Source: Candidatus Woesearchaeota archaeon (GTDB taxonomy: Archaea; Nanobdellota; Nanobdellia; Pacearchaeales; GW2011-AR1). Taken from it: 64,000 nt of DNA. Location: the NCBI GenBank assembly GCA_964385425.1, contig CAYLOQ010000002.1:12714-76713 (forward strand). The letters run 5' to 3'. The notes beneath the pieces were generated by a model. It had not been told where the DNA came from and did not search any database. It saw nothing but the letters and a program-made list of their open reading frames with translations. Shown one piece after another: positions 600 to 63,474 of the stretch; position 1 is the stretch's first letter, and each line of letters begins with the position of its first letter. A program made the position numbers and the translations under genes.

Positions 600-3077
600 C
601 TAACACTTTGAATAACCACAATCAAAACAAGTTGGTTCAAAACATCCAGAAACCATACTCACATTGGCACTAAAGCATTTAGGACAGGAAATTTTGAAAT
701 CATTTTGTTTTTCTTCAATCACCTGGTTATTTATCTTTCCGTTATTCTGGGGATCATTTGGTTTTAATCTACCTAGTTTAATTAAACTTTTTCTTAGTGC
801 TGTTGAAAGTGCATGGGGTATGGAATCTATCCTATTTTTTCCAAACCCGTATGGTTTTTCGGATTTTACAGAATTCAGATGCTTGAGAATTTTTACGGGA
901 TCTCCCCCCAACTCGAAATATTTTGAGAGCACTATTGCCAGTGCATTTGACAACCCTGAAATCTCTGTTCCACAAGGTGTTTTGTTCGCAAAGATTTTTG
1001 AGACGCCCTCCTCATCATAGTTTACATGAATGTGGATCGGTCCATGTCCTGTCTCAATCTGATAATAATCTGAAAATTCTTCGAGCTTCCCCTTTTCTTT
1101 TTTTTCTGTTTTTTTATCATTGATATTCAAAACCTGGAATTTTTTAGAACCATCCCGATAAATAGTAACTCCTTTTGCCCCATGTTTGTAAGCAAGCAGG
1201 TAAACTTCATTAACATCCTGAACAGTTGCATCGTTTTTTAAATTGACTGTTTTTGATACGGCATTGTCTGTATACTTTTGGAAAGCACATTGCATCATGA
1301 CGTGATCTCTAGGGCTTAGATCATGAGATGTTAAAAATAAATGTTGTATTTCTTCTGGAATTTCTTTAATCCCTTTAAGTGATTTATGATTATTGTTTAT
1401 TTTCGTATATAGTTCTTCTTGCCCTAAACCAAAATAATCATTTTCTTTAGAAATTTTTTCAAATAACGGATTAACCTCAAAGAAAACATCTTTTTCCATC
1501 GGTTTTTCCCCTTTTTTTAGAGCGTCAATTCCCTGGGCATTATATCTTGTATAAACTATAGCAAAAAAAGGCTCTATTCCAGCACCCTGTAATCCAGCAG
1601 TAATCCCTATAGTCCCTGTGGGGGCAATGGTGGTTCTTGCAGAATGTCGTGGATAAAATTCCTGTTCTCTAAAATAAGGCCCCTCCTTGTCATAAATAGA
1701 ATTTTTCCAAGCAGGAAAGATACCCCTCTTCTCCGCTAATTCTTCCGAAGCTCTCATACAGGAAACATTAATGAACTGCATAACTTCTTCTGCTTTTTCC
1801 AATGCTTCTTTAGAATTATACGGGACCCCCATCATAACCAAAGATTCTGCCCACCCCATAACACCCAAACCAATCCTCCTGGTTTTCTTAGCCACCCTCT
1901 CTATTTCTGGTATTGGGTAATTATTGATATCAATAACATTATCTAGGAAATGTGTGCAGGCAAATACACATTTTTTTAAAGCTTCATAATCAAAATCAGA
2001 ATTATCTTCTTTTATAAATTTTGAAAGGTTAATTGAACCTAAATTACAGGGTTCGTATGGAAGTAAGGGTTGTTCTCCACAAGGGTTTGTCGCTTCTATC
2101 TGTCCTAAATTAGGGGTTGCGTTACTTCCTGTATTATTTATTCTGTCAATAAAGATTATCCCTGGATCCCCTGTTTCCCAAGCACCTTTCACTAATTTTT
2201 CCCACACTTCTTTTGCGTTTAATTTCCCAACTGCTTCACCATCCCTTGGATTTATAAGTTCATATTCCTCATTATTTCTTACAGCCCCCATAAATTTCTC
2301 ATCTACTGTTACAGACACATTAAAATTCTCCATAACACCCTGAGTTTTTTTCATTTCTATAAATTCTAGAATGTTTGGGTGTGTGTAATGAAGAATACCC
2401 ATGTTGGCCCCTCTTCTAGTCCCTCCTTGTTTAACAACTTCCGTGGATTTATCAAATATCTGCATAAATGTAACAGGTCCTGAAGAGACGCCTGTTGTTG
2501 ATTTTACAAGATCCCCTGTAGGTCTTAATCTTGAAAAAGAAAACCCTGTTCCACCACCACTCTGATGTATTAAAGCCATATTTTTGACAGAAGAATAAAT
2601 GTCTTCAATAGAATCTTCAACAGGTAAAACATAACACGCACTCAATTGCTGTAAATCTCTTCCGGCATTCATTAGGGTTGGAGAATTTGGAAGAAACTTG
2701 AAATTGGAAAGCAGTTCATAGAATTTTTCTTCAGTTTCAGAAATTATCTCCGGATTTTTTCTATTAATTTTCTCTAGATTTTCAAGGAATTTTCTGAAAT
2801 TCCTATATCTAAAATCAGGACTTTTAAAATCCCCATGGAGTAAAAATAGATTAACCATTCTTTTTCTAGACTCATATGGAACTCTTTCGTAATCCACCCC
2901 TTCAAAAATGTCAGATTCTGATACTTTTTCAGAATGCAAAATATTAGAAAGCGCAATATTATGACAAATATTTCTCAACCATTCTTCTATAGTTGGAGAC
3001 CCCTTCAAATATTTGTCTTTTATGACCTTCAGTTGATTTTCAGTTAAATCTAATTTTGTTAATTGCTTTAGTTCCAT
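600..3077 (-). CDS. nrdJ: adenosylcobalamin-dependent ribonucleotide reductase (class II, NrdJ)
   Basis: 825 aa; NPCGEQPLLPYEPCNLGSINL active-site motif, C-terminal CxxC...CxxC zinc ribbon; no intein insertion. Confidence 0.9.
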   Translation of the reverse strand: MELKQLTKLDLTENQLKVIKDKYLKGSPTIEEWLRNICHNIALSNILHSEKVSESDIFEGVDYERVPYESRKRMVNLFLLHGDFKSPDFRYRNFRKFLENLEKINRKNPEIISETEEKFYELLSNFKFLPNSPTLMNAGRDLQQLSACYVLPVEDSIEDIYSSVKNMALIHQSGGGTGFSFSRLRPTGDLVKSTTGVSSGPVTFMQIFDKSTEVVKQGGTRRGANMGILHYTHPNILEFIEMKKTQGVMENFNVSVTVDEKFMGAVRNNEEYELINPRDGEAVGKLNAKEVWEKLVKGAWETGDPGIIFIDRINNTGSNATPNLGQIEATNPCGEQPLLPYEPCNLGSINLSKFIKEDNSDFDYEALKKCVFACTHFLDNVIDINNYPIPEIERVAKKTRRIGLGVMGWAESLVMMGVPYNSKEALEKAEEVMQFINVSCMRASEELAEKRGIFPAWKNSIYDKEGPYFREQEFYPRHSARTTIAPTGTIGITAGLQGAGIEPFFAIVYTRYNAQGIDALKKGEKPMEKDVFFEVNPLFEKISKENDYFGLGQEELYTKINNNHKSLKGIKEIPEEIQHLFLTSHDLSPRDHVMMQCAFQKYTDNAVSKTVNLKNDATVQDVNEVYLLAYKHGAKGVTIYRDGSKKFQVLNINDKKTEKKEKGKLEEFSDYYQIETGHGPIHIHVNYDEEGVSKIFANKTPCGTEISGLSNALAIVLSKYFELGGDPVKILKHLNSVKSEKPYGFGKNRIDSIPHALSTALRKSLIKLGRLKPNDPQNNGKINNQVIEEKQNDFKISCPKCFSANVSMVSGCFEPTCFDCGYSKC

Positions 3078-3512
3078 TTACAAATCCTTTAACTCATTTT
3101 TAAAATCTTTGATGTCTTGAAAATCTCTATAGACAGAAGCAAATCTTATGTAGGCAACATTGTCGAGTTTTTTTATTTTCTTCATAACTAATTCACCAAT
3201 TGTAGAACTCCTAATCTCCTTTTTTCCCTTTCTTCTCAATTGCTCTTCAATTTCATTTATCATCTTCTCTATTTTTTCTTTTGATATGGGCCTTTTTTCA
3301 AAAGCTTTCTCAAAACCCTTTTCTAATTTTTCCCTGTTAAACTTTTCCCTGCTCCCATCTTTTTTTATGACATACAGGTCACTCTTGCTTATTTTTTCGT
3401 AAGTCGTAAACCTCTTTTTACAATTTAAGCACTCTCTCCGCCTCCTTATTCCCTCAGGAGATTTTCTCTTGTCGGTTACTTTTGAAGCACCAATACAGTA
3501 CGGACATTCCAT
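3078..3512 (-). CDS. nrdR: transcriptional repressor NrdR (zinc ribbon + ATP-cone)
   Basis: MECPYCIGASKVTDKR...RRRRECLNCKKRFTTYEKI...VIKKDGSREKFNREKL matches NrdR architecture; stop abuts nrdJ start (operon). Confidence 0.85.
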   Translation of the reverse strand: MECPYCIGASKVTDKRKSPEGIRRRRECLNCKKRFTTYEKISKSDLYVIKKDGSREKFNREKLEKGFEKAFEKRPISKEKIEKMINEIEEQLRRKGKKEIRSSTIGELVMKKIKKLDNVAYIRFASVYRDFQDIKDFKNELKDL

Positions 3513-3646
3513 ATAAACTACAACATGTTGTACTTTAAATATGTTTGGATTCTATAAGTTGTATAATTATAGATTTAAAACTAAAGAGTATTTAAAGCTT
3601 TCTTTATACTCCAGCGGGATGACACGAGGGATTTTTAAAAACTTCC

Positions 3647-4048
3647 TCATAAAAAAACCACATTCAGAAATATCAGAAGGGTTATGAAAGAAGAAATCAG
3701 ACAATAGAAACAATAATTCTTTAAGATTTTTGCCTGGACAAAGACTAAAAAACCAGAGAACAAGACCGCTATTCCAGAGCCAATTATTAAAATTGTTTTA
3801 ACTATCCCATCTGAATCAAAAAATAATAAAATTGCTCCAATAATAATTCCTATGTAAAATAACAAGCCAAGAATGTCGTTTCTTATAAAAAAAGTTTTAT
3901 TCCATTTACTTTCTAATACAACATTACAATCATCTCCAATAGGACACACCATTGGCTGTTTTCTGCTGTTCTTCCAGATTAAGTATGCTGTATCTACCAT
4001 CCCCAATACACCTAATACAATTAATGTAGCAATGAATTGAACTTCCAT
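3647..4048 (-). CDS. vitamin K epoxide reductase (VKOR) family membrane protein
   Basis: 4-5 TM helices, loop Cys pair (VCPIGDDC) and TM CxxC (CFYC) as in VKOR. Confidence 0.55.
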   Translation of the reverse strand: MEVQFIATLIVLGVLGMVDTAYLIWKNSRKQPMVCPIGDDCNVVLESKWNKTFFIRNDILGLLFYIGIIIGAILLFFDSDGIVKTILIIGSGIAVLFSGFLVFVQAKILKNYCFYCLISSFITLLIFLNVVFL

Positions 4049-4049
4049 C

Positions 4050-4430
4050 TTATTTCTCCTTGCGGGAAAGTATAGCTAGAGCAATTGCCATAAATAAAAT
4101 AGCAATGTCTCTAAATACAATATCGAATAAAAACATGTTTGCCATTACAATAACAACCATGGTCAATGCAGAAAGAATAGAGGCCTGGAATATTTTTTTA
4201 TTAGACAATAGCCAGGCACCGAGAGCAATTTCGTAAATGGAAAACAAGATAAGAAATATTGATGCTGGAAATATATCTATTATAAAGCCAGGGACAAACC
4301 CTATCCAGTTTTCTGGAGCCAAAAGAGAAGCAATTCCGGAATAGAGAAAAACAATTGTAAGACCAGATCTCAAGAAAAAAGAAATAAGGGATTCACGCTT
4401 AAATTTCTCCTTAACCATCTTAATTAACAA
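4050..4430 (-). CDS. DoxX-like small integral membrane protein
   Basis: 126 aa, 4 predicted TM segments, DoxX-like size/topology; adjacent to VKOR. Weak. Confidence 0.35.
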   Translation of the reverse strand: MLIKMVKEKFKRESLISFFLRSGLTIVFLYSGIASLLAPENWIGFVPGFIIDIFPASIFLILFSIYEIALGAWLLSNKKIFQASILSALTMVVIVMANMFLFDIVFRDIAILFMAIALAILSRKEK

Positions 4431-4905
4431 CTATTGTTCCTGTCAAAGAAGATCTTAAGTGATCGTGATATCCCCAGCTCCCCTTTTCATTAAAGGTAAA
4501 AGAATATGATCCTCCGGCCCTAACACCGCTACACGCATCAAAAGTACTCCCTTCATCAGAACCTCCACACTTGTTTATCGAAGATCCAGGGTATACTGTA
4601 TGGGTTGGGTGAACAGCTGATGCTGGCCAATGACTTCTAGAATCTAGGTTAGTCCACATAACCGTATCACCAGAGTTTATTTCCATGGTTCTTGGTGAAA
4701 ATCCAGAAGAAGTTATCTCTACAGTTACTGTTTTACTCGTCGGTTCATTAACACCTTCCTCAACACCAATAGTAATGCTCGGCTGTTGCTCTTCTGGTTC
4801 TTGACCTGTTTGAGCTTCCTGGTTCCCAGAAAACACGAATATAAAGATACCTATTATAACAACCAATGCAACAACAATAAGTCCCACAATACCGCCTGTT
4901 TTCAT
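4420..4905 (-). CDS. secreted cupredoxin-like protein (putative copper-binding)
   Basis: N-terminal TM/signal, Gln/Glu-rich linker, C-terminal beta domain with His/Cys clusters (SHWP...CGG...YHDH) resembling cupredoxin-like folds. Confidence 0.4.
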   Translation of the reverse strand: MKTGGIVGLIVVALVVIIGIFIFVFSGNQEAQTGQEPEEQQPSITIGVEEGVNEPTSKTVTVEITSSGFSPRTMEINSGDTVMWTNLDSRSHWPASAVHPTHTVYPGSSINKCGGSDEGSTFDACSGVRAGGSYSFTFNEKGSWGYHDHLRSSLTGTIVVN

Positions 4906-5106
4906 ATGAAACCTAAGAATATGTGATTTATAAAATTTTCTTCAGACAGTTAAATTAATAAATATCTATTTTTTCTCTACTAAACGTTTTCTAGATTAAA
5001 ATGACTAAAATAGTAATGGCTAAGGAAAGGAAAGCTTCTGAAATAAAGAAGGTATTGCACCCTTTGTAAAAGATTATATATACACATACTAAAAGTATTT
5101 AAAGGT

Positions 5107-6120
5107 ATGGTGTATAAATCTTATATGTTTTATAATAATTTATCCAAAAAGAAAATTATGAAGATATATTCTTTTGTTATAAATAAAAGAAAAAAAGAAG
5201 GTTTTGGACAGAGGAAATTATCTCGGTTGGTTAATAAGAAACTTGGTACTAACATTCATGAAAACACAATTGCTAACTGGATTTATCTTGGAAAAGTTCC
5301 GTTTGGAAATGAAAAAACACAATTCAAACCATTACCAAAACCAACGAAAGAAGAACTTTACAAACCATATATTGAAGAAAAACAGAGTGCCCAAAAAATT
5401 TCTAAAAAATATAAAGTTTCAACTATTGTGGTTATTAATTGGATAAAAAATTATAATATTCCAATAAGAACACATAAAGAATCTATGAATACCTTCACCG
5501 TTAAAGAGATTTTGAGAAATAAAAAATTAAAACAACCAAAGAAGTCTTTTATTAAATTATCTCCAGCGAAGGCATATATTTTAGGTGTTTTATGTGGAGA
5601 TGGTCATATTAACAAGAAAAGTGTTAGGTTTGAAATAAGAAAGGACAAGGAATTTATTGAAAAATTTTCAAGCTGTTTTAAAGAAGTTTATGGTATTAAA
5701 TATAAACATTATTATTATGCTAAGAGAGATACTTATATTTTATATGTTTCCTCCCAAATAATTTGTAGAGATTTATTAAATTATGGTGATTTTGGAACTT
5801 TTGTCTGGAAAGTTCCTAAGGGAGTTTTGAATAGTAAAAGTGATAAAATTATTTCCAATTTCTTAAAAGGATTTTATGATAGCGAGGGATCTGCCAGTAG
5901 ATACTGTGTTAGTGTTTCTTCATCAAATAAAGTTGGAATAAAGGACATAAGTTTGTTATTATTTAAATTTGGGATTAAAAATAAAATTATACTTACTAAA
6001 AAAAATCATTATGTGATTAACATTACTGGAAGAGAAAGACTTAAAACGTTTAGAGATGGGATAGGTTTTACCATTAAAAGAAAAATGAAGAATATTTATA
6101 TCAAAAATGACACGGATTAA
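5107..6120 (+). CDS. free-standing LAGLIDADG homing-endonuclease family protein with N-terminal HTH domains
   Basis: Two LAGLIDADG motifs: AYILGVLCGDGHI and FLKGFYDSEGSA; N-terminal basic HTH-like segments. 3' end overlaps the helicase start by 14 nt. Confidence 0.8.
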   Translation: MVYKSYMFYNNLSKKKIMKIYSFVINKRKKEGFGQRKLSRLVNKKLGTNIHENTIANWIYLGKVPFGNEKTQFKPLPKPTKEELYKPYIEEKQSAQKISKKYKVSTIVVINWIKNYNIPIRTHKESMNTFTVKEILRNKKLKQPKKSFIKLSPAKAYILGVLCGDGHINKKSVRFEIRKDKEFIEKFSSCFKEVYGIKYKHYYYAKRDTYILYVSSQIICRDLLNYGDFGTFVWKVPKGVLNSKSDKIISNFLKGFYDSEGSASRYCVSVSSSNKVGIKDISLLLFKFGIKNKIILTKKNHYVINITGRERLKTFRDGIGFTIKRKMKNIYIKNDTD

Positions 6121-38520: not shown

Positions 38521-39444
38521 CTATTCATTTGCCATTTTAATCAACTCCAGCCATTTATTTTCAGAATGAATTTTCAATTCAGGAATGGCAAGTTCATAAG
38601 GACATCTTTTGATTGACTGATGTTTTCTTATGAAATTATAAAAGATTTCATAACCTTTCATTATTGCATTTGCACTTTCAACTGAACCATGAAAACCTCT
38701 GAAAGTTTTTGTTCTCTCACGAATTGAATTGTGCAATCTTTCAATCATAATGTTAAACCCTTCTCCTTTTGAAGCATTAACCTGATTATGAATAACATTT
38801 AGTTTGTGAGTTTTATTAGAAAATCCATAAACTTTCTTGATTGCGTTTGGATAAGCAAGAAGTCCGTCAGAAGTTACAATCTTAATCTGCTCTCCTGTCT
38901 TTTGTTTTGCTTTTGATAAAACAAACTTCAATTCTTTCTGTTCTCTTGCCATTACATATTCAGAGGAAATCATAAATCTTGTTTTGCTGTCAATACAATC
39001 AATAAACCAATTTTTATCAACACCTTTTTTATTGTAAAATTTTCTTCTGTGATATTCCATTTCATCAACTTGAATTTCTCTTCCAATTTTAAGATTAAGA
39101 TTGTCTGTAAATTTTGAAATCATTATTGAATATTTTCTGATCCATCTTAAAACAGAAGTATGGTCAGAGTTATGAGGATAAAATGCTTTGAAGTGTTCCT
39201 GAACTTTTCTTGTTGAAACTCCTCTGTAAAACAAATCCAAAGCACAAGTTATTTTCTTTGGATGATTTCTCATTCTGAAAAATCCGTAGTTAATTGTAAA
39301 AGTTTTATCACAATCATTGCATTTGTATCTTTGAATTATTCCTCTGTTTTGAGTTTTTCTTTTTGTCCATTTAATTATGTTTTTGTTTTTGCAATTAGGA
39401 CAGCAAATTTTATTAATACTCTTTTGTTCTCTTACTTGTTTCAT
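38521..39444 (-). mobile_element. IS6-family DDE transposase with N-terminal zinc finger
   Basis: CPNCKN...CNDCDK; IQVDEMEY...WFIDCID (D), IVTSDGLLAYPNAI (D), FNIMIERLHNSIRERTK (E); collinear with IS26-type Tnp. IS ends not identified. Confidence 0.7.
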
Positions 39445-56853: not shown

Positions 56854-58671
56854 TTAAAGAACAATCTCAAAATCTCCGATCTCTTTTTTGACGAGATCAA
56901 AAACCTTAGGATTTATTTCTATGCTTTTATCTGATTTTTGTTGTTCCATACACCCAGAAACCTCTTTCATGTTTGAATCCTCGACATTTTCTGTTAACTT
57001 TTTGATTTTCCCTTCTTCCTCGAACAAGAAGCTAACTCCACCACAGTGCAATAATTCGGCAACCATATTTTTTCCGGACTTTTTATACTTGAGCCTCATC
57101 CTACCTTTTTCCAGAGACACTAGATCTTTTCTTTGGGAATAATCTATTAAATCATTAATCAATACTGTTGCACTTTTTCTTGCTTCATCGACTTTGTGAG
57201 CATTTAATTTACCTTTTTTAAACTCTGCCCTTGCACTAACAACCTCCCGTAGAATTCTAAGATGCTGTTGAGTAAACTTTCCTTTCTTGACCATTTCTTT
57301 CTCAAATTCAGAAATAAGTGTTGCCTGAGCTTTCTTACCAAGTATCGCTTCTAGCAGACTGAAAACATCCTTGTGAATTTGTTCTATTGTTTTTCCCTGC
57401 GCCTTTTTCTCAATTTGTTTCCTCAATTCCTTTAATCTCTTCAGGTAATCCTCCATACCTTTAACAAGCTTATCCAGCTCTGCGCCTTTTATTTCTTTTA
57501 ATTTTTCGTGTTCATAATCTTTATAGATTCCTACAATTTTTCCTAGAATATCGACATACCTTTTTTCTAACATTTTTTCTTTATCCACAAAGATTTTTTT
57601 TGTTTCAGAGGCAAGATGTTTTGGAACAGGGGGAGGAAGTCCTTGCAGCATAAATAAAGCCTGTGTTGGGACTGTAACACCCCAATAAACATCACGGATT
57701 ACAAGGTCTAGTAATGTTTTTTTAACCATACTACTCGTCTTGTCTCCCATAGACATGAACATATCAATCGCTTCCGGACTTGGTTTTAGCTTACCCATTT
57801 TTAAAAGAGCTTTCCACGGCATGAATGTTCCCTTGTCATAAAGAGGGATCCCGTCCCTGATAAAAGTGAACATGACAGGGTGAGCATCTTTGACAGATTG
57901 CCAGAAATCAGTCAAAAGGTAGATTTGCGGCTCTAACCTGTTCTTAACCCTTGCAAGAGCAGTTGCCTCTGAAATCTGCTTATAGATCATTCCCCTCAGT
58001 CTTTCCAGCAATTCAAGACGAGGCATTCTCTTTACATCTGTATCATTGATAATCACGAAAACATCGACATCAGAATCTTTTATCGATTCCCCCCTTACTA
58101 GGCCACCCCCTATAACATAAGAAACAACATATCTATCAAACTTCTGCAAAACTAGAGACTTGTGAATTTGGGCAACCCTCAATGCTCCTAAGATTCCTGT
58201 ATCGTGGAGGGGGAAAGACATAGATATGGACTCCACCAGATCAAACTTACTATCCAAGGAAGCTTCCCAGATATCTACAGGGGTTTTAACATGTAGCCAG
58301 ATTTTTTGCTTCATGGCCTCTATTTGTTTGACTATTTCTTGTTTTATCCTTGGGATCTCTTTGAAATTTTCTTCAGGAACAACAATATAGAGGTGTACAA
58401 ATTTCTCGGTCTCTTTTGGGGCTTCTTCTTCCCGGATAAAGATTCCTATAGACTGCGGAGGAAGAATTCCTATTGCCTGTGTAAAAGGGTATTTCTTGAC
58501 GATAAAAGCCTTTAATTTTTCCAATTCTTTCTTGGTTTTCTCCATCTCTTTCTGAATTTTCTCTGTATTTTCAGCAATAACAGGTTTCTTGGTAGAGTAC
58601 TTCATATCAAGTTCCATTCCAGGAATGCCCTGTATTTCTTGATCTGTTGTTGTTTTGTTGTCCGATTCCAT
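56854..58671 (-). CDS. Pol-beta-superfamily nucleotidyltransferase domain protein (605 aa); CCA-adding-enzyme-like core with extensions
   Basis: VIGGGLVRGESIKDSDVDVFVIIND resembles GS-x9-13-DxD NTase motif of class I CCA enzymes and CD-NTases. Confidence 0.5.
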   Translation of the reverse strand: MESDNKTTTDQEIQGIPGMELDMKYSTKKPVIAENTEKIQKEMEKTKKELEKLKAFIVKKYPFTQAIGILPPQSIGIFIREEEAPKETEKFVHLYIVVPEENFKEIPRIKQEIVKQIEAMKQKIWLHVKTPVDIWEASLDSKFDLVESISMSFPLHDTGILGALRVAQIHKSLVLQKFDRYVVSYVIGGGLVRGESIKDSDVDVFVIINDTDVKRMPRLELLERLRGMIYKQISEATALARVKNRLEPQIYLLTDFWQSVKDAHPVMFTFIRDGIPLYDKGTFMPWKALLKMGKLKPSPEAIDMFMSMGDKTSSMVKKTLLDLVIRDVYWGVTVPTQALFMLQGLPPPVPKHLASETKKIFVDKEKMLEKRYVDILGKIVGIYKDYEHEKLKEIKGAELDKLVKGMEDYLKRLKELRKQIEKKAQGKTIEQIHKDVFSLLEAILGKKAQATLISEFEKEMVKKGKFTQQHLRILREVVSARAEFKKGKLNAHKVDEARKSATVLINDLIDYSQRKDLVSLEKGRMRLKYKKSGKNMVAELLHCGGVSFLFEEEGKIKKLTENVEDSNMKEVSGCMEQQKSDKSIEINPKVFDLVKKEIGDFEIVL

Positions 58672-58770: not shown

Positions 58771-60855
58771 TTAATCTAAATCTTCAAAAAGTCCCCCCAC
58801 ACTGGGCTCATCCTCAACCTTTGCCGGAGGCCCTGCCGCGAGTCTTTTTTGTTTTAAGGCGCGGTTTTTTAAATGTTTATTAAAGAGAGATTTAGATCCA
58901 AAAAACAAGGGAAAACTAGAAATAAGACCCCCTAGACTTACCCAATATAAATTATTAATAGGGTCACCATCAAAAGCATAATAAATCGCTGCACCAGCAC
59001 TTCCTAAAGCCACTGGAGCCCAAGACCTAAAAGCATAATTCCTAGCTCTTTCGGCTATATGTCTCTTTTCCTCCCTATCCAACATAACATCTCCCTCTCT
59101 CGCTTTCTCTTCCAAACTAGCAGAGCTCTCTGGTTGTTCTTCTAGAGCTTCTGTTCTAAGTCTTCCATAAAAAGGACTAATCCGATTATACCAAGGACCA
59201 CTTCCACGAATATTCAAAAGTCCCTTCTGATTAACTTTTCCTCTACCAGCATAATTAACAAGACCTATTTGTTTACTTATCTCGTCTTCCGATCCCGGTT
59301 TTTTCTTCCCCAACCCTATTTTTCCTGCCACATTAAAAAAACTATACCACTGATCTCCACCCACTTCTCTAGCGTAATTTACTAGGTTACCTATAGACCA
59401 CTGATCTCCACCCACTTCTCTAGCGTAATTTACTAGATTAAACCCAGACCATTGATCTTTGCCAACTTCTCTTGCAACATTCATTAGATTAAATACTGCC
59501 CCTTGAGCTCCGCCAACTTCTCTTGCATAATTTCCTAGATTAATCAGTGATGTCTGGCCTTTACCTACTTCTCTTGCAACATTCATTAGATTCAATCCTA
59601 CCAATTGATTCCCGCCTACTTCTCTTGCAACATTTCCTAGATTCAATCCTACCAATTGATTCCCGCCTACTTCTCTTGCAACACTTATAAAATGATTAGT
59701 ATGATCTTTCCCCTTTGGATTGTAAATTGCCTTTGCTCTTGCCGCAATTACTTTTCCTCCACTTCCAACTTCTTGAACTGCTGTGATCTCTGGTTCTTCT
59801 CTTCTTTGTGGTGTCTGTGCCCTAATGGGATTCCCTCCAAGAATAGCTTCAAGTTCTGCTCTTGTCTGGGGAACTCTTTCAACTTTATATCCAAGATCAT
59901 TTGTCATCTCTAAAGCACTCTGATACCTATCCCCTCTTTCTCTTGCTGTTGCTTTTTCAATAACCCTTAAAAAATCATCAGAGACGGGAAAAGCCCCTTC
60001 TGCCCTTAAACCTTCCAAGTTCAATGCTCCAAGCCATGTATCGTGAAATCTGTCAAGATCTTTTGTCACCATTGCACCAATAATTCTTCCTAAAGAATAA
60101 ATGTCTGCAGTTTGATCTGCCTCACCATGACCCCATATTTCAGGAGAATTAAATCCAGGGGTTCCAAGAACACTTCCTGTAAAATAAGTAGCCACTCCTT
60201 CTTTGGCTTCAGAAAAATCTACAAGTGTGTATGGCCATGGTGCATCTTCTGGCATTGGAAAAATATTCTCTAGTTTTAAATCTCTATAAATAATTAATCT
60301 ACCATTTCCAGTATGTATGTGTTCGAGAATAGATCCTATAGAAAGCCCTGCTTCTCTGGCCTTTTTCTCAGAAAATGGCCCCTCTCTCTGAAGCTGTTTT
60401 CCAAGGTGGTTTCCTTTTATTAATTTCATCACAAGGTAAGGAACTTGTTCCCCCTCTTCTTCCTGGATAAAAGAACCATATGTATCAACTATTCCTGGAT
60501 GACCTCTTGATAATTTTCCTAATGAACGAGCATCACTTCTAAATGCTGTTTCTGCTTTCCTCATCTGTTCATCATTTTCAGCATCTCCAGGAGCAGGAAT
60601 AGCGTGAAAATGCCTTTTCAGTGCAACAACTCTTCCTGTTTCTGTATCATAAGCACTCTTTATCAATGAGTGTCCTCCTTTCCGAAAAACAGTTCTATCA
60701 ACAAATCTAGAAGGATCCATGTCTTCTTGGAAAGTAAGATACTCCAAGTCAACCTGTGTTGTAGGAACAATTCTAGAATTTGGTTGGCCTGAACCTGAAA
60801 TCATGGAACCATCAAATGAAAAGTATAATGGACCATTATTATTTAGAATCGTCAT
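58771..60855 (-). CDS. Ser/Thr protein kinase with C-terminal 17-aa tandem repeats and TM segment
   Basis: VALKR (VAIK-like), YRDLKLENIF, DFS, TPGFNSPE; eight or more NxxNxAREVGGxQ repeats; hydrophobic C-terminal segment. Confidence 0.75.
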   Translation of the reverse strand: MTILNNNGPLYFSFDGSMISGSGQPNSRIVPTTQVDLEYLTFQEDMDPSRFVDRTVFRKGGHSLIKSAYDTETGRVVALKRHFHAIPAPGDAENDEQMRKAETAFRSDARSLGKLSRGHPGIVDTYGSFIQEEEGEQVPYLVMKLIKGNHLGKQLQREGPFSEKKAREAGLSIGSILEHIHTGNGRLIIYRDLKLENIFPMPEDAPWPYTLVDFSEAKEGVATYFTGSVLGTPGFNSPEIWGHGEADQTADIYSLGRIIGAMVTKDLDRFHDTWLGALNLEGLRAEGAFPVSDDFLRVIEKATARERGDRYQSALEMTNDLGYKVERVPQTRAELEAILGGNPIRAQTPQRREEPEITAVQEVGSGGKVIAARAKAIYNPKGKDHTNHFISVAREVGGNQLVGLNLGNVAREVGGNQLVGLNLMNVAREVGKGQTSLINLGNYAREVGGAQGAVFNLMNVAREVGKDQWSGFNLVNYAREVGGDQWSIGNLVNYAREVGGDQWYSFFNVAGKIGLGKKKPGSEDEISKQIGLVNYAGRGKVNQKGLLNIRGSGPWYNRISPFYGRLRTEALEEQPESSASLEEKAREGDVMLDREEKRHIAERARNYAFRSWAPVALGSAGAAIYYAFDGDPINNLYWVSLGGLISSFPLFFGSKSLFNKHLKNRALKQKRLAAGPPAKVEDEPSVGGLFEDLD
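59290..59700. repeat. 51-nt tandem coding repeats inside the kinase gene (two units 100% identical at 59347-59385 and 59398-59436)
   Basis: CCACTGATCTCCACCCACTTCTCTAGCGTAATTTACTAG repeated exactly; degenerate copies on both sides. Confidence 0.8.
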
Positions 60856-61073
60856 TTCCCTTCCTCCTCTTGATTTTCCTTAAGCATCTTATTCACACTA
60901 AATTCAATAACATGAGACCTATTCCTAAAAAATCCTTCTTGTAGAGATTCTTCTATCAGTTTCAATGTTTTCTCATCAATGGTTATGCTGACTTTCTGTT
61001 TCATTCCAATTATCCTACCCCGTAATATAAAAACAGATAAAATCCGATATATAAATCTTTCGTTTGTTATCAT
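60852..61073 (-). CDS. ribbon-helix-helix (CopG-like) protein
   Basis: KVSITIDEKTLKLIEE...SHVIEFSV; likely starts at internal MKQKV. Confidence 0.4.
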   Translation of the reverse strand: MITNERFIYRILSVFILRGRIIGMKQKVSITIDEKTLKLIEESLQEGFFRNRSHVIEFSVNKMLKENQEEEGK

Positions 61074-61133
61074 TTTAAAGAGGTAATGATATAAAGCTTA
61101 TTAAGAAATTGTAATAGAAAAAACCCCTTTTTA

Positions 61134-61406
61134 TTAAAACCTCTTTTTGTAGATCTTGTCGTGGTGATCAAAATCTTCAAATAAAATTAAGTTTTTATTT
61201 TTCTCAAATTTAAAAACTAAAACTTTTTCCCCAATCTGTACCCTCTTAAAATCTTTTAAATCATGCCTTAGATTCTTATAATGTTCACAATTAGAATTAA
61301 TAATCTCGATGATTTTCTTGATAATCCTCTCACGTGTTTTAGGATCTTTCTTAAAGAGCTTTGTCATGATGCTTTGGAGATGCGGTTGTATCTCATATTG
61401 ATACAT
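61134..61406 (-). CDS. RelE/ParE-superfamily toxin-like protein
   Basis: 90 aa; beta-strand-rich C-terminus (KVLVFKFEKNKNLILFEDFDHH) typical of RelE-like mRNA interferases. Confidence 0.5.
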   Translation of the reverse strand: MYQYEIQPHLQSIMTKLFKKDPKTRERIIKKIIEIINSNCEHYKNLRHDLKDFKRVQIGEKVLVFKFEKNKNLILFEDFDHHDKIYKKRF

Positions 61407-61407
61407 A

Positions 61408-61644
61408 TTACTCCCCTGTTAACTTTCTTAACTCTTCTATGCTTTTGAAAGGAATACCTTTTTGTTTATCAATTTTCATTAATTTCTTTGTATATTCAGG
61501 CCTGAGTTCAGGTTCTAAACTTTGTTCATATTCTTGGATAAGAAAAATCAAAGCTTGATCTCTATTTTTGAATCCATACTTACCCTTAACTATGTTCAAG
61601 ATTCTATTTTCTCTTTCCGGAAGTTCTATTGTTGCTTTTACCAT
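61408..61644 (-). CDS. putative cognate antitoxin (78 aa)
   Basis: Immediately upstream of the RelE-like gene with 1-nt spacing. Confidence 0.4.
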   Translation of the reverse strand: MVKATIELPERENRILNIVKGKYGFKNRDQALIFLIQEYEQSLEPELRPEYTKKLMKIDKQKGIPFKSIEELRKLTGE

Positions 61645-61730: not shown

Positions 61731-61866
61731 GGTCCTATAGTCCAGTGGTTAAGACACCTCGTTTACACGCAGAAGAACCAAGTTTCTTCCGTACCATCTC
61801 CTTTTCGTGGAGAAGCGGAAACTGCTAAAAGCCGAGGAAACAGCAGTTCGATTCTGCTTAGGACCA
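61731..61866 (+). tRNA. tRNA-Val (anticodon TAC) with about 64-nt intron at canonical 37/38 position
   Basis: Acceptor GGTCCTA/TAGGACC, anticodon stem CCTCG/CGAGG, loop TTTACA|intron|C, T-arm AGCAG-TTCGATT-CTGCT. Confidence 0.75.
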
Positions 61867-61915
61867 TCACCTTTTAAGTTTAACGCTCACTTTAACACAA
61901 GGAGGGTATTATAAA

Positions 61916-62533
61916 TTAGGGGCCCTTATTCTTTTTAAGATTGAGCTCAAATAGAATCTTTCTACAGCTTGTTCTTACACCTGTATGGCAAATTGCCAAT
62001 CTTGACACCTCAAATTCCAAGGGAAGACCCTTAAAATCTGTTTCGTGCACCAGAAGAGTTATATGTGGGTCATAATTCTCTCTGCTTCTTTCTTTAAACA
62101 TTGGAATTCCTCTCGAAATCGTGGTTACATCTTCTTCCTCTTTTCTGAAATACATTTTGGGCGTAGGTTCATAAGATAAGAATTTTTCTACATGATCCAT
62201 TATGGATTCATGTAGCTTTTGCAATCTTTCATTTTTGGTAATTGAAAACCAATAAGTTTTTTTTCCTTCCGAGGATTCAAAATATTTCAAGTCGGTAAGT
62301 TCAATTTTTATGGGACTGAAATCTTTAGATAAGTTTGAAATTAACCTTTCAATTTCCTCAACATTGGTTTCATCAGTACAGCCCATTGAAAGAGAAAGAT
62401 GGGGTATAAAATCGCTCTCGCTCATTAGATGCTCGGCTTGGCCTTTCTTATCCGCATTTCTTACTATTCCTTCTATTTTTGAAACAATATTTTTTGGAGG
62501 AATTAGTACAATATCTATTGCAATCTTTGCCAT
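61916..62533 (-). CDS. 2H phosphoesterase superfamily protein (LigT-like 2'-5' RNA ligase / cyclic phosphodiesterase)
   Basis: Two H-x-T/S-x motifs (HLSL and HITL) about 115 aa apart in a 205-aa protein. Confidence 0.6.
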   Translation of the reverse strand: MAKIAIDIVLIPPKNIVSKIEGIVRNADKKGQAEHLMSESDFIPHLSLSMGCTDETNVEEIERLISNLSKDFSPIKIELTDLKYFESSEGKKTYWFSITKNERLQKLHESIMDHVEKFLSYEPTPKMYFRKEEEDVTTISRGIPMFKERSRENYDPHITLLVHETDFKGLPLEFEVSRLAICHTGVRTSCRKILFELNLKKNKGP

Positions 62534-62722
62534 TTTATGTGTTTAAAATAAGTAAGTGTGACTTATAATATTTCGGATTCTCTGTAACATCCGCACCGAA
62601 TTGTGAGTTCCAAGCTAAACTAGAGTTAGGATGTTTAGTATAAAATATCCCCTAATATAAAACTTTAAATAAAATTAATCCTTCATGTTCAATAAATTAA
62701 CGAAAAGGTAGGTTTTAGCTAC

Positions 62723-62833
62723 CCGCGTTTACACGCAGAAGAACCAAGTTTCTTCCGTACCATCTCCTTTTCGTGGAGAAGCGGAAACTGCTAAAAGCCG
62801 AGGAAACAGCAGTTCGATTCTGCTTGGGACCAT
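62723..62833 (+). repeat. duplicated 3' portion (part of anticodon stem, intron, 3' exon) of tRNA-Val, about 98% identical to 61756-61866; no 5' half
   Basis: 111-nt direct repeat with 2 mismatches (cctcg to ccgcg; tagg to tggg); the upstream 17 nt do not encode a D-arm or acceptor 5' strand. Confidence 0.75.
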
Positions 62834-62879
62834 AGCCTTCTAATAGGTTTTAAAAATTAACATTTCTACTATACTATGG

Positions 62880-63012
62880 GCGTGAGTAGTATAGTGGTTA
62901 GTATATTTCGTTGCCAATGCCCAACTTTAGAAAAGTTCGGCGCTCAAATAAGACGATCAAATAAGAGCAAAGCGAAAACGAAGTGACCCGGGTTCGACTC
63001 CCGGCTCGCGCA
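62880..63012 (+). tRNA. tRNA-Gly (anticodon GCC) with about 60-nt intron at 37/38
   Basis: Acceptor GCGTGAG/CTCGCGC, anticodon stem TTTCG/CGAAG, loop TTGCCA|intron, T-arm CCGGG-TTCGACT-CCCGG, discriminator A. Confidence 0.7.
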
Positions 63013-63021
63013 TAATTTAGC

Positions 63022-63474
63022 ATGAAAAAACAAAAAACATTTTTCATTGTTCTTATAATTCTTATGATTGTTTTATTAATTTTTTTAATCCAAAATAATT
63101 TAGGGGGGACCCCTGAGGTCTGCCTTGAAGAAAATTGTTTTCTTGTTGAGCTGGCAAAAACTAACGATGAAAAATCAAAAGGGCTTATGTTTCGTGAGTT
63201 TTTGGAAGACAATCAAGGAATGTTGTTTATATATAATCTTGATGGAGAATATAATTTCTGGATGAAAAACACATTAATACCATTAGATATAATCTGGATT
63301 AATGCAGAAAGAGAAATCGTACATATCGAACACAAAGCTCAACCGTGTGATGAGCAGTGTGAAATCATAAAACCAGAAAAAAATGCTCGTTTTGTTTTAG
63401 AGATCAATGGAGGACTTGCAGAGAAGCTAGGAATAAAATTAGGGAATAAAATTGATTTTTATAATATCCTTTAA
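63022..63474 (+). CDS. DUF192-family protein (secreted/anchored)
   Basis: N-terminal TM; GMLFIYN...FWMKNTLIPLDIIWI...VLEINGG pattern of DUF192/COG1430. Confidence 0.55.
   Translation: MKKQKTFFIVLIILMIVLLIFLIQNNLGGTPEVCLEENCFLVELAKTNDEKSKGLMFREFLEDNQGMLFIYNLDGEYNFWMKNTLIPLDIIWINAEREIVHIEHKAQPCDEQCEIIKPEKNARFVLEINGGLAEKLGIKLGNKIDFYNIL

Follow-up and report, generated by a model that had tools for sequence, protein, structure and literature searches.

Elements that integrate into tRNA genes by means of tyrosine recombinases, such as SSV1, the pNOB8-type plasmids, PYG1 of Pyrococcus yayanosii and the islands termed ‘Islander’, are flanked by a regenerated tRNA gene and a displaced direct partial copy of it (PMC8371274, PMC9897764, PMC4383910). 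Such partial tRNA copies, about 44 bp in length, bound integrated elements and are common in archaeal genomes (PMC9897764). In archaea, attachment (att) sites typically reach as far as the tRNA's 3' end, the anticodon loop of the tRNA serves as the overlap region for the SSV1 integrase, and tRNA genes with introns are also among the targets (PMC8371274); attP sites that carry introns have been proposed (PMC3293823). Here we describe a locus within a 64,000-nucleotide stretch of DNA from Candidatus Woesearchaeota archaeon (contig CAYLOQ010000002.1; hereafter the window), in which an intron-bearing tRNA-Val(TAC) gene and a partial copy downstream of it, referred to below as the orphan, bracket a single gene for a 2H phosphoesterase. 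We consider it likely that the two copies are the attL and attR sites of a site-specific integration, of the tyrosine-recombinase type, into tRNA-Val(TAC), with the crossover in or next to the anticodon loop.

The locus resembles tRNA-integrated islands and proviruses in that its block of identity begins in the region of the anticodon loop and continues as far as the tRNA's 3' end, and in that an empty site is present in relatives. Scars of this kind at tRNA genes are already known, and in kind the window case is an ordinary integration scar. It differs from the described archaeal tRNA-integrated elements, which measure 9-23 kb, in that the insert is only 856 bp long and contains one gene and no integrase, and, unlike in the described tRNA-gene islands, the repeat of 110 nt takes in a 64-nt tRNA intron in its entirety. 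The host belongs to the DPANN (Pacearchaeota-like), a group that is not mentioned in a 2021 review of archaeal tyrosine recombinases (PMC8371274).

Structure of the tRNA-Val locus

The window is part of a 505-kb metagenome scaffold (ENA ERZ23499938, ZHAO22-1_SAMN11268109 scaffold_2) of an AT-rich archaeon (34% G+C), and the matches to its DUF192 protein are labelled Pacearchaeota. The features of the locus are as follows.

56854..58671, minus strand: nucleotidyltransferase-domain gene (NTP_transf_2), 605 aa (Pfam PF01909, 25.1 bits); left synteny anchor
61731..61866, plus strand: tRNA-Val(TAC), read as the probable attL (Rfam, ARAGORN, fold of anticodon stem and intron); by our own count, 5' exon 61731-61767, intron 61768-61831 (64 nt) and 3' exon 61832-61866
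61757..61877, plus strand: first repeat copy, tRNA positions 27-73 including the intron, with 11 nt of flank
61867..62722: inserted cassette of 856 bp between the two putative att copies, missing from the Val-Gly spacer of the related locus L011
61916..62533, minus strand: 2H phosphoesterase gene, 205 aa, the cargo (Pfam, motifs, AlphaFold, Foldseek)
62534..62722: non-coding arm of the cassette, comprising the upstream region of the 2H gene and the element-side arm beside the core
62723..62843, plus strand: second repeat copy, the orphan part of tRNA-Val, read as the probable attR; 5' exon of 11 nt (positions 27-37), intron 62734-62797, 3' exon 62798-62832 and 11 nt of flank
62834..62879, plus strand: ancestral Val-Gly spacer with the TATA-like box of tRNA-Gly, GGTTTTAAAAATT (compare TATTTTTAAAAATAGGG at 2530-2564 of L011)
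62880..63012, plus strand: tRNA-Gly(GCC) with a 63-nt intron (Rfam, 48.7 bits), ancestral right neighbour
63022..63474, plus strand: DUF192 gene (Pfam, 114 bits), right synteny anchor

The match of the tRNA-Val gene to Rfam RF00005 reaches 52.8 bits and shows an insert of 65 nt following position 37. ARAGORN, when introns are allowed, also calls the gene at 61731-61866, and we take this copy to be the functional one. The intron occupies the canonical 37/38 position in the Rfam alignment and by inspection adopts the strict hBHBh' form of the bulge-helix-bulge (BHB) motif, comprising the anticodon stem (CCUCG/CGAGG), a central helix (UUUA/UAAA), an outer helix (GCAG/CUGC) and 3-nt bulges (CA^C and AG^C). 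Of these helices, the minimum-free-energy fold recovers the anticodon stem and the outer one but not the A-U central helix. We class it as a canonical, BHB-dependent archaeal tRNA intron. In its default mode ARAGORN missed both intron-bearing tRNAs of the window (Val and Gly), and with introns allowed it reported 62880-63012 as a tRNA-Leu(caa) whose intron measures 55 nt; both the loop sequence TTGCCAA and the alignment to Rfam identify this gene as tRNA-Gly(GCC).

The direct repeat (61757-61877 and 62723-62843) spans 121 nt at 96% identity, with a start-to-start spacing of 966. Within its tRNA-homologous core (61757-61866 and 62723-62832, same strand) 108 of 110 positions are identical, the two mismatches being T at 61759 against G at 62725 and A at 61860 against G at 62826, and the similarity extends at lower identity (8/11) for 11 nt beyond the end of the tRNA. 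The intron itself is identical at 64/64 positions, and a 57-nt stretch taken from it has exactly two occurrences in the window (0 expected, 100 shuffles). The block of identity begins at tRNA position 27-32 and runs to the 3' end of the tRNA; the repeat measures 110 nt, and not the usual length of about 44 nt, because the 64-nt intron lies inside the att region. An independent assembly (Logan) from the same sample matches 61830-62788 at every position.

The orphan starts at position 27, in the 5' strand of the anticodon stem. It lacks positions 1-26 but retains the entire anticodon loop (with TAC), the 3' exon and the complete intron flanked by its two splice sites. Rfam makes no tRNA call here at E ≤ 1. 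Through the T-to-G change its anticodon stem acquires a G29-A41 mismatch, and the A-to-G change would turn the U6-A67 pair into U6-G67. A hairpin (GGTAG-N7-CTACC, 62707-62723) lies in the element-side arm beside the core; it is also the single terminator-like match, on the minus strand, in a scan for bacterial-type promoters and terminators, which is uninformative for an archaeon.

An earlier note, made by inspection of this DNA, had described the intron-bearing tRNA-Val(TAC) and the single minus-strand 2H phosphoesterase gene between the copies, and both descriptions hold, the first by Rfam and ARAGORN, the second by passing matches to PF13563 and PF02834. The repeat that it reported, 111 nt at 62723-62833 with two mismatches, is real and the mismatches number two, but the tRNA core is 110 nt long and ends at 62832. 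Similarly, the note was right that the repeat holds the intron and the 3' exon and lacks the D-arm and the 5' acceptor strand, but the copy does not begin on the 3' side of the anticodon stem, since it starts at position 27 and includes the anticodon loop.

The empty site and the proposed course of integration

The DNA of the locus led to no close relative. Exact-match scans of one genome per species (GTDB) with a 36-mer spanning anticodon loop and intron and with a 27-nt string of the 3' exon gave no matches, nor did a first metagenome scan, and loci were reached instead via the proteins that flank the tRNAs. With DUF192 as the anchor, orthologues followed by SOD, DUF1858 and SufBD genes, as in the window, were found in five loci (L007-L011), of which L007, L008 and L010 are on truncated contigs, L009 has broken synteny, and only L011 represents a full empty site. 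This locus, on an ENA contig, encodes a nucleotidyltransferase-domain protein with 82% amino acid identity to that of the window and a DUF192 protein with 73%. It has the order nucleotidyltransferase-domain gene (minus strand), 50 nt, intronless tRNA-Val(TAC), 35 nt, intronless tRNA-Gly(GCC), DUF192 and tRNA-Ser(CGA), and it contains no 2H gene, no partial tRNA copy and no counterpart of the kinase/toxin block that precedes tRNA-Val in the window. The gene for tRNA-Gly is intronless at the equivalent position in both L008 and L011.

The orphan shares features with L011. The 3' strand of the acceptor stem of tRNA-Val in L011 (TGGGACCA) is as in the orphan and unlike the working copy, G67 of the orphan agreeing with L011 where the working copy has A67. 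The spacer that follows the orphan contains the same box, TTTTAAAAAT, as precedes tRNA-Gly in L011; this box was also compared with the upstream regions of the five tRNAs of the window. The G67 of the orphan and the adjoining spacer with the tRNA-Gly promoter box both accord with its being the displaced original 3' part of the host gene.

The ancestral order would thus have been nucleotidyltransferase gene, tRNA-Val, a short spacer, tRNA-Gly and DUF192. A circular DNA with the 2H gene and an attP site would have recombined with the tRNA-Val gene, the attP comprising the anticodon-loop core with an unrelated arm on one side and, on the other, a near-identical downstream part of the tRNA including the 64-nt intron. 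The working gene at 61731-61866 would then combine the 5' part of the host with a 3' part supplied by the element, and the 3' part of the host, still joined to the spacer and tRNA-Gly, would have been pushed 966 bp downstream to become the orphan at 62723-62832. The event would have run from the empty to the occupied site. The element, having no recombinase, would be either the remnant of a larger one or a small cassette whose movement depends on a recombinase, presumably of the tyrosine type, with its gene at another place, and the 2H phosphoesterase would be cargo with no part in the integration mechanism.

Orphan tRNA-Val parts in related loci

With the nucleotidyltransferase-domain protein as anchor (61-82% identity), 80 related loci were fetched and annotated with ARAGORN (introns allowed) and tblastn. 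Most have tRNA-Val directly upstream of the orthologous gene and retain the order nucleotidyltransferase gene, tRNA-Val, tRNA-Gly, the gap between the two tRNAs ranging from 6 nt to more than 2 kb; the nucleotidyltransferase-domain gene is the ancestral left neighbour of tRNA-Val. Orphan 3' parts of tRNA-Val, sought by self-comparison, by pattern and with an nhmmer profile built from tRNA-Val 3' halves, are present in at least nine of these loci (L013, L017, L018, L063, L069, L073, L074, L081 and L089). In nearly all of them (L013, L017, L063, L069, L074, L081 and L089) the similarity to the tRNA starts at the anticodon loop, TTTACA. The layout of L013 is the same as that of the window, with a full tRNA-Val, a cassette of 356 nt, the orphan and tRNA-Gly. 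All the cassettes are small (0.3-2 kb), and their cargo is unrelated from locus to locus.

L013 and L081: small membrane proteins
L017: protein of 391 aa with no assigned function
L018: Fic protein
L063: FMN reductase and HxlR regulator
L069: cyclodipeptide-synthase-like protein, winged helix-turn-helix (wHTH) protein and NYN RNase
L074: PIN toxin
L089: DUF4258/DUF2283 and ParE toxin-antitoxin pairs

The DNA 5' of the core is unlike the tRNA's 5' half and falls into families. For example, a 31-nt arm (CCTAAAGTACATAAAGTATCATATTATTTAC) recurs with at least 29/31 identical positions six times in L069, twice in L089 and also in L078. Cassettes beside tRNA-Val in different genomes are 79-88% identical in nucleotide sequence (toxin-antitoxin cassette, L089 215-1360 compared with L026, L068 and L083; Fic cassette, L018 4112-5566 compared with L020 3814-5124), as against 69-74% for the adjoining nucleotidyltransferase gene in the same pairs. 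Since the cassettes and their arms are more alike than this gene, the comparison of sequences indicates that they would be younger than the host genomes and move horizontally to land at tRNA-Val. The Fic gene lies 5' of tRNA-Val in L020 and 3' of it in L018.

The most elaborate arrangement is that of L069, where at least seven sites lie on one strand within 5.4 kb (600-5371), separated by spacers that mostly hold one open reading frame (ORF) each on the same strand (these include ORFs of 81 and 101 aa and those for the cyclodipeptide-synthase-like, wHTH and NYN proteins). Each unit consists of a conserved arm of 31-32 nt, TTTACA, either no intron or an intron of about 42 nt, and the 3' exon of tRNA-Val; three of the sites contain introns, which are of two types. 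No full tRNA-Val was found within the 10.6 kb examined. The 3' parts of some internal sites (TGGGATCA) would not pair with the 5' strand of the host, and these sites therefore resemble the attP-type junctions of accreted elements.

Several other loci show disturbance of tRNA-Val. In L017 (30-70 and 1419-1489) the orphan has the acceptor strand TAGGACCA, as against GGGCGAT.../...ATCGCCCA in the full tRNA-Val, and the differences extend over the acceptor and T stems, suggesting that the working gene was replaced whole and not merely recombined. L050 (150-760, minus strand) contains the tRNA-Val nearest in exon sequence to that of the window; it is intronless and is preceded by two tandem pseudo-copies, of about 200 nt, of its promoter and 5' part, followed by scrambled sequence with two TTTACA cores. 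Some contigs break within tRNA-Val, that of L012 (1-36) starting exactly in the anticodon loop and that of L025 (1-22) ending 22 nt into the 3' half, as would be expected if populations were heterogeneous at the recombination point. In L089 an ORF (1449-2000) whose domains are those of sigma-70 regions 2 and 4 directly follows an orphan site, the locus being otherwise archaeal.

These relatives bear on whether the repeat arose locally, by slippage or unequal crossing-over that duplicated the 3' part of the tRNA, with the 2H gene already in place or inserted later. The window has no integrase and no compositional contrast, and its copies are 98% identical and only 966 bp apart, as a local event would allow. 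However, the duplication covers the tRNA part alone and leaves out the 856-bp interval, Val and Gly are only 35 nt apart at the empty site, and, had the tRNA been duplicated whole and drifted neutrally, the 3' part would not have stayed at 98% identity beside an unrecognisable 5' part. Moreover, the loss of identity at the anticodon stem/loop is abrupt, and at least nine independent loci, which differ in cargo, share this boundary, so that we regard local duplication as very unlikely. Site-specific integration is favoured because an intact tRNA, a displaced 3' part that begins at the anticodon loop, an unrelated arm, an empty site and recurrence with varied cargo together form the signature of attL and attR.

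A number of points nevertheless weigh against integration. Searches with Pfam found no integrase or other recombinase in the 856-bp insert, whose only ORF is the 2H phosphoesterase, in the window (1-64000) or in 8.5 kb beyond it, and none in the scanned cargo and neighbouring ORFs of the related loci; nor did PHROGs reveal an integrase among 118 representative flank ORFs (best 25 of 84 families). The insert shows no contrast in G+C or composition. No free or viral attP was found, and viral contigs scanned for the family-2 att arm, for the loop-intron junction of the window and for a degenerate tRNA-Val 3' half gave no match. The window's own att arm has no relative in the 80 loci, the LigT cassette was seen at none of their tRNA-Val genes, and the closest homologue of the 2H gene (79% nucleotide identity) sits in an ordinary chromosomal context. 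L011 is not a close relative, its tRNA-Val differing in several stems and its tRNAs being intronless. An identical intron in both copies requires its presence in both attB and attP, or later gene conversion; the former is plausible if the cassettes cycle within one population. Finally, the choice between an integrated form and an empty site accompanied by a free 966-bp circle hangs on the phasing of two single nucleotide polymorphisms separated by a 100-nt identical block, for which the ENA scaffold is the sole source, the Logan contig being unable to decide.

The orphan and disrupted tRNA genes

A separate piece of a tRNA in an archaeon with disrupted tRNA genes recalls the split and tri-split tRNAs of Nanoarchaeum equitans, Caldivirga maquilingensis and Staphylothermus (Chan et al. 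2011, PMC3218864). Accordingly, the orphan could be expressed and functional, either as the 3' piece of a split or tri-split tRNA that is joined in trans or as a vehicle from which the splicing endonuclease releases the intron RNA. Its BHB context is intact, its intron has remained identical at every position while the flanks differ and is a member of a conserved family of structured introns, there is a TATA-like box (CTTTAAATAAAA, 62663-62676) some 50 nt upstream, and some of the orphans in L069 are also intron-bearing. In contrast to split halves, which start or end at the splice junction and have complementary leaders and trailers (PMC3218864), the orphan begins at position 27 and has its own anticodon loop and a complete cis intron, and, unlike split tRNAs, it coexists with a complete gene for the same tRNA. 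The G-A mismatch in its anticodon stem also argues against function, as does the lack of any match to the 5' 26-mer (up to 3 mismatches) other than the tRNA gene itself in the 64-kb window. TATA-like strings are common in DNA of 34% G+C, the identity of the introns is explained by the recency of the event, and orphans of other loci decay, that of L081 having 3 mismatches and the copies in L089 being internally deleted. We regard a functional orphan as very improbable, and as a displaced host part it is probably inert.

A parallel is offered by Caldiarchaeum subterraneum (Sugahara et al. 2012, PMC3293823), at whose tRNA-Thr(GGU) locus, as in the window, a tRNA fragment lies about 1-2 kb from a full intron-bearing gene with an insertion between them. 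In Caldiarchaeum the fragment comes from the 5' side, a recombinase is encoded in the insert and only one copy has the intron (PMC3293823), whereas in the window the fragment comes from the 3' side, there is no recombinase and both copies have the identical intron.

The earlier note had set three explanations side by side and remarked that no integrase was present, which the Pfam searches bear out. The att scar that it listed first has since gained the empty site, where tRNA-Val is followed after 35 nt by tRNA-Gly between the same flanking genes, as well as the same-boundary orphans with unrelated cargo. Its second, tandem duplication, fails to account for the confinement of the duplicate to the tRNA part, the recurrent anticodon-loop boundary and the 5' sequence unrelated to the tRNA, and its third, a stand-alone 3' half, is at odds with the anticodon loop, the complete cis intron and a start away from the splice junction; the orphan 5' half for which it proposed a search was not found in the 64 kb.

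Remnant or mobile cassette

The window insert has the make-up of a non-autonomous att-flanked element, with flanking recombination sites and no recombinase. Comparable elements in bacteria are the cis-mobilizable elements (CIMEs) of Streptococcus thermophilus, which derive from integrative and conjugative elements (ICESt1/ICESt3), are flanked by att sites, have no recombination module of their own and accrete in tandem at one site. The loci described here are similar in that att-flanked DNA lacks a recombination module and the L069 array has attP-like internal junctions. Unlike CIMEs, however, the units of the window and L069 are mostly single genes, and no helper element or integrase was identified.

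As a variant of the integration reading, tRNA-Val might in this archaeal clade be the platform of an integron-like system, in which integrase-less cassettes of 1-3 genes are inserted serially, and in trans, at its anticodon loop. The site of each unit would be a conserved arm with the 3' part of tRNA-Val, the recombinase gene would lie at another place in the genome or be supplied by a helper element, and the LigT cassette, far from being a decayed remnant, would be a mobile unit that is still intact. The array in L069, with its many sites on one strand, spacers that are mostly a single same-strand ORF, and internal sites that look like the attP-type junctions of accreted elements, fits such a system, as do the greater conservation of arms and cassettes than of the core gene across genomes and the uniformly small size (0.3-2 kb) of cassettes that all lack an integrase. 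Like integron cassettes, the L069 units have one gene and sites of about 75-115 nt in one orientation on a fixed chromosomal platform; unlike integrons, they are accompanied by no IntI gene, attI or attC-type hairpin, and their sites derive from a tRNA. The window differs further from integron arrays in having a single cassette with its gene on the opposite strand.

Against a cassette system stand the absence of any recombinase linked to the sites, the lack of relatives of the window's own arm, the LigT gene lying on the strand opposite to the tRNA, and the fact that no circular form was observed. Small size and the lack of an integrase would equally fit the trimming of larger elements in deletion-prone reduced genomes. 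We therefore treat the integron-like variant as a tentative possibility, and as between remnants in deletion-prone genomes and cassettes moved in trans, CIME-like or integron-like, the second is conceivable but doubtful.

The 2H phosphoesterase gene

The 205-aa protein is a genuine member of the 2H phosphoesterase superfamily. It passes the Pfam models PF13563 (44.2 bits, cutoff 27) and PF02834 (29.3 bits, cutoff 23.3) and contains the two motifs H45-L-S and H157-I-T, the histidines of which are invariant in 39 homologues. An AlphaFold model with the duplicated alpha/beta lobe fold (predicted local distance difference test score, pLDDT, 95.5) has Bacillus subtilis YjcG, the Arabidopsis CPDase and Escherichia coli LigT as its top Foldseek matches at probability 1.00. 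The assignment to the superfamily made in the earlier note is thereby upheld, but membership of the LigT/ThpR equivalog is not, the score against TIGR02258 being 36.7 bits with a cutoff of 65.7. The protein shares with LigT/ThpR, YjcG and plant CPDase the two HxS/T motifs, the fold and the Pfam superfamily models, although its identity to solved structures is at most 16%; unlike the known enzymes, it belongs to its own family of about 200 aa, with conserved C182 and C190, from DPANN-type metagenome contigs. There are 41 detectable homologues of about 190-240 aa, mostly unnamed and from metagenome contigs, and no LigT homologue was detected in the viral contig collection by the method used.

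The four nearest homologues (L003-L006) are found in four unrelated contexts, with no tRNA, no orphan and no synteny with the window, and a LigT-like gene occurs in 0/80 of the related tRNA-Val loci. The link to RNA processing that had been drawn from the position of the gene is thus not supported. Because the same site in other genomes carries unrelated cargo, the position of the 2H gene between pieces of a tRNA is most likely a coincidence. At the DNA level the similarity of the cassette to L003, the nearest homologue locus, is confined to 61936-62548 and a 17-nt upstream motif, TTGGAACTCA(C/G)AATT, at 62590-62610 in the window and about 990-1010 in L003, some 60-70 nt upstream of the start of the 2H gene. 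The motif, given as TTGGAACTCAC within the upstream region (62534-62722), is common to the window and L003, which suggests that the 2H gene moved along with its own upstream region. A separate motif upstream of LigT in L004 and L005 (TCGGTTGGGGCG) was considered and set aside as unrelated to tRNAs and to the window.

An intron family shared by tRNA-Val, tRNA-Gly and tRNA-Ser

The introns of the two tRNAs of this locus have relatives in other tRNA genes. The first 32 nt of the tRNA-Gly intron of the window (62917-62980) are identical to the intron of tRNA-Ser(CGA) in L008 (576-607) and L011 (3156-3187), and a stretch in L007 (1510-1530) was also listed with those sharing this sequence. That a stretch of the tRNA-Gly intron is found in the tRNA-Ser(CGA) of relatives whose tRNA-Gly is intronless points to transfer between non-cognate tRNA genes. 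Likewise, the first 37 nt of the tRNA-Val intron of the window are 92% identical to the tRNA-Gly intron of L015 (4370-4407).

The 14 introns of Val, Gly and Ser(CGA) genes that were compared share a 5' hairpin, in which the apex (GAACC...GGUUC) is invariant and the outer pairs covary, followed by (A)CCAUC(A)ACCUCC and often by a second hairpin, CCUCC/GGAGG. Members of the family are found in the window (61768-61831) and in L015, L019, L020, L031, L052, L057, L061, L068, L074, L080, L083 and L086, and the family has no match in Rfam. The stretch (A)CCAUC(A)ACCUCC presumably resembles the 3' tail of 16S rRNA.

The intron-bearing orphans of L069 represent a situation in which att sites could carry introns, as proposed for Caldiarchaeum (PMC3293823). 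It is possible, although we would not give it much weight, that the Pacearchaeota-like DPANN have a tRNA-Val cassette platform whose sites also spread structured introns between genomes and between tRNA genes, the LigT unit being an intact cassette.

Other genes of the window

Upstream of tRNA-Val in the window is a block of genes that are absent from L011.

58771..61644, minus strand: kinase/toxin block of four genes, missing from L011 (domain calls; comparison with L011)
58771-60855, minus strand: Ser/Thr kinase-like gene, within the block
60852-61073, minus strand: ribbon-helix-helix (RHH) protein, within the block
61134-61406, minus strand: RelE/ParE-like toxin, within the block
61408-61644, minus strand: DUF2683, within the block

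The block has no flanking repeat and no remnant of a tRNA 5' part, and it is a separate insertion 5' of tRNA-Val, outside the repeat-bounded unit. The possibility that the block and the full tRNA belong to one larger element was considered and ruled out on the same grounds. The kinase-like gene holds six 51-nt tandem repeats (59300-59707). The only other mobile-element-like genes noticed in the window are an ORF with a LAGLIDADG domain, which adjoins a gene for an Lhr-type helicase, and an ORF resembling a DDE transposase (IS240/Mutator-type) (5107-6120 and 38521-39444).

Implications

Neither a split tRNA nor an operon for tRNA splicing should be seen in this locus, and for the purposes of annotation orphan pieces of this sort are better flagged as att remnants than as tRNA genes. 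An att region that is able to contain an entire tRNA intron provides concrete material for the proposal that attP sites carry introns (PMC3293823). In this little-studied clade of archaea with reduced genomes, tRNA-Val appears as a recurrent landing site for very small cassettes of accessory genes, with no recombinase in view, and this bears on the manner in which ultra-small symbiotic archaea acquire toxin-antitoxin genes and genes of RNA metabolism.

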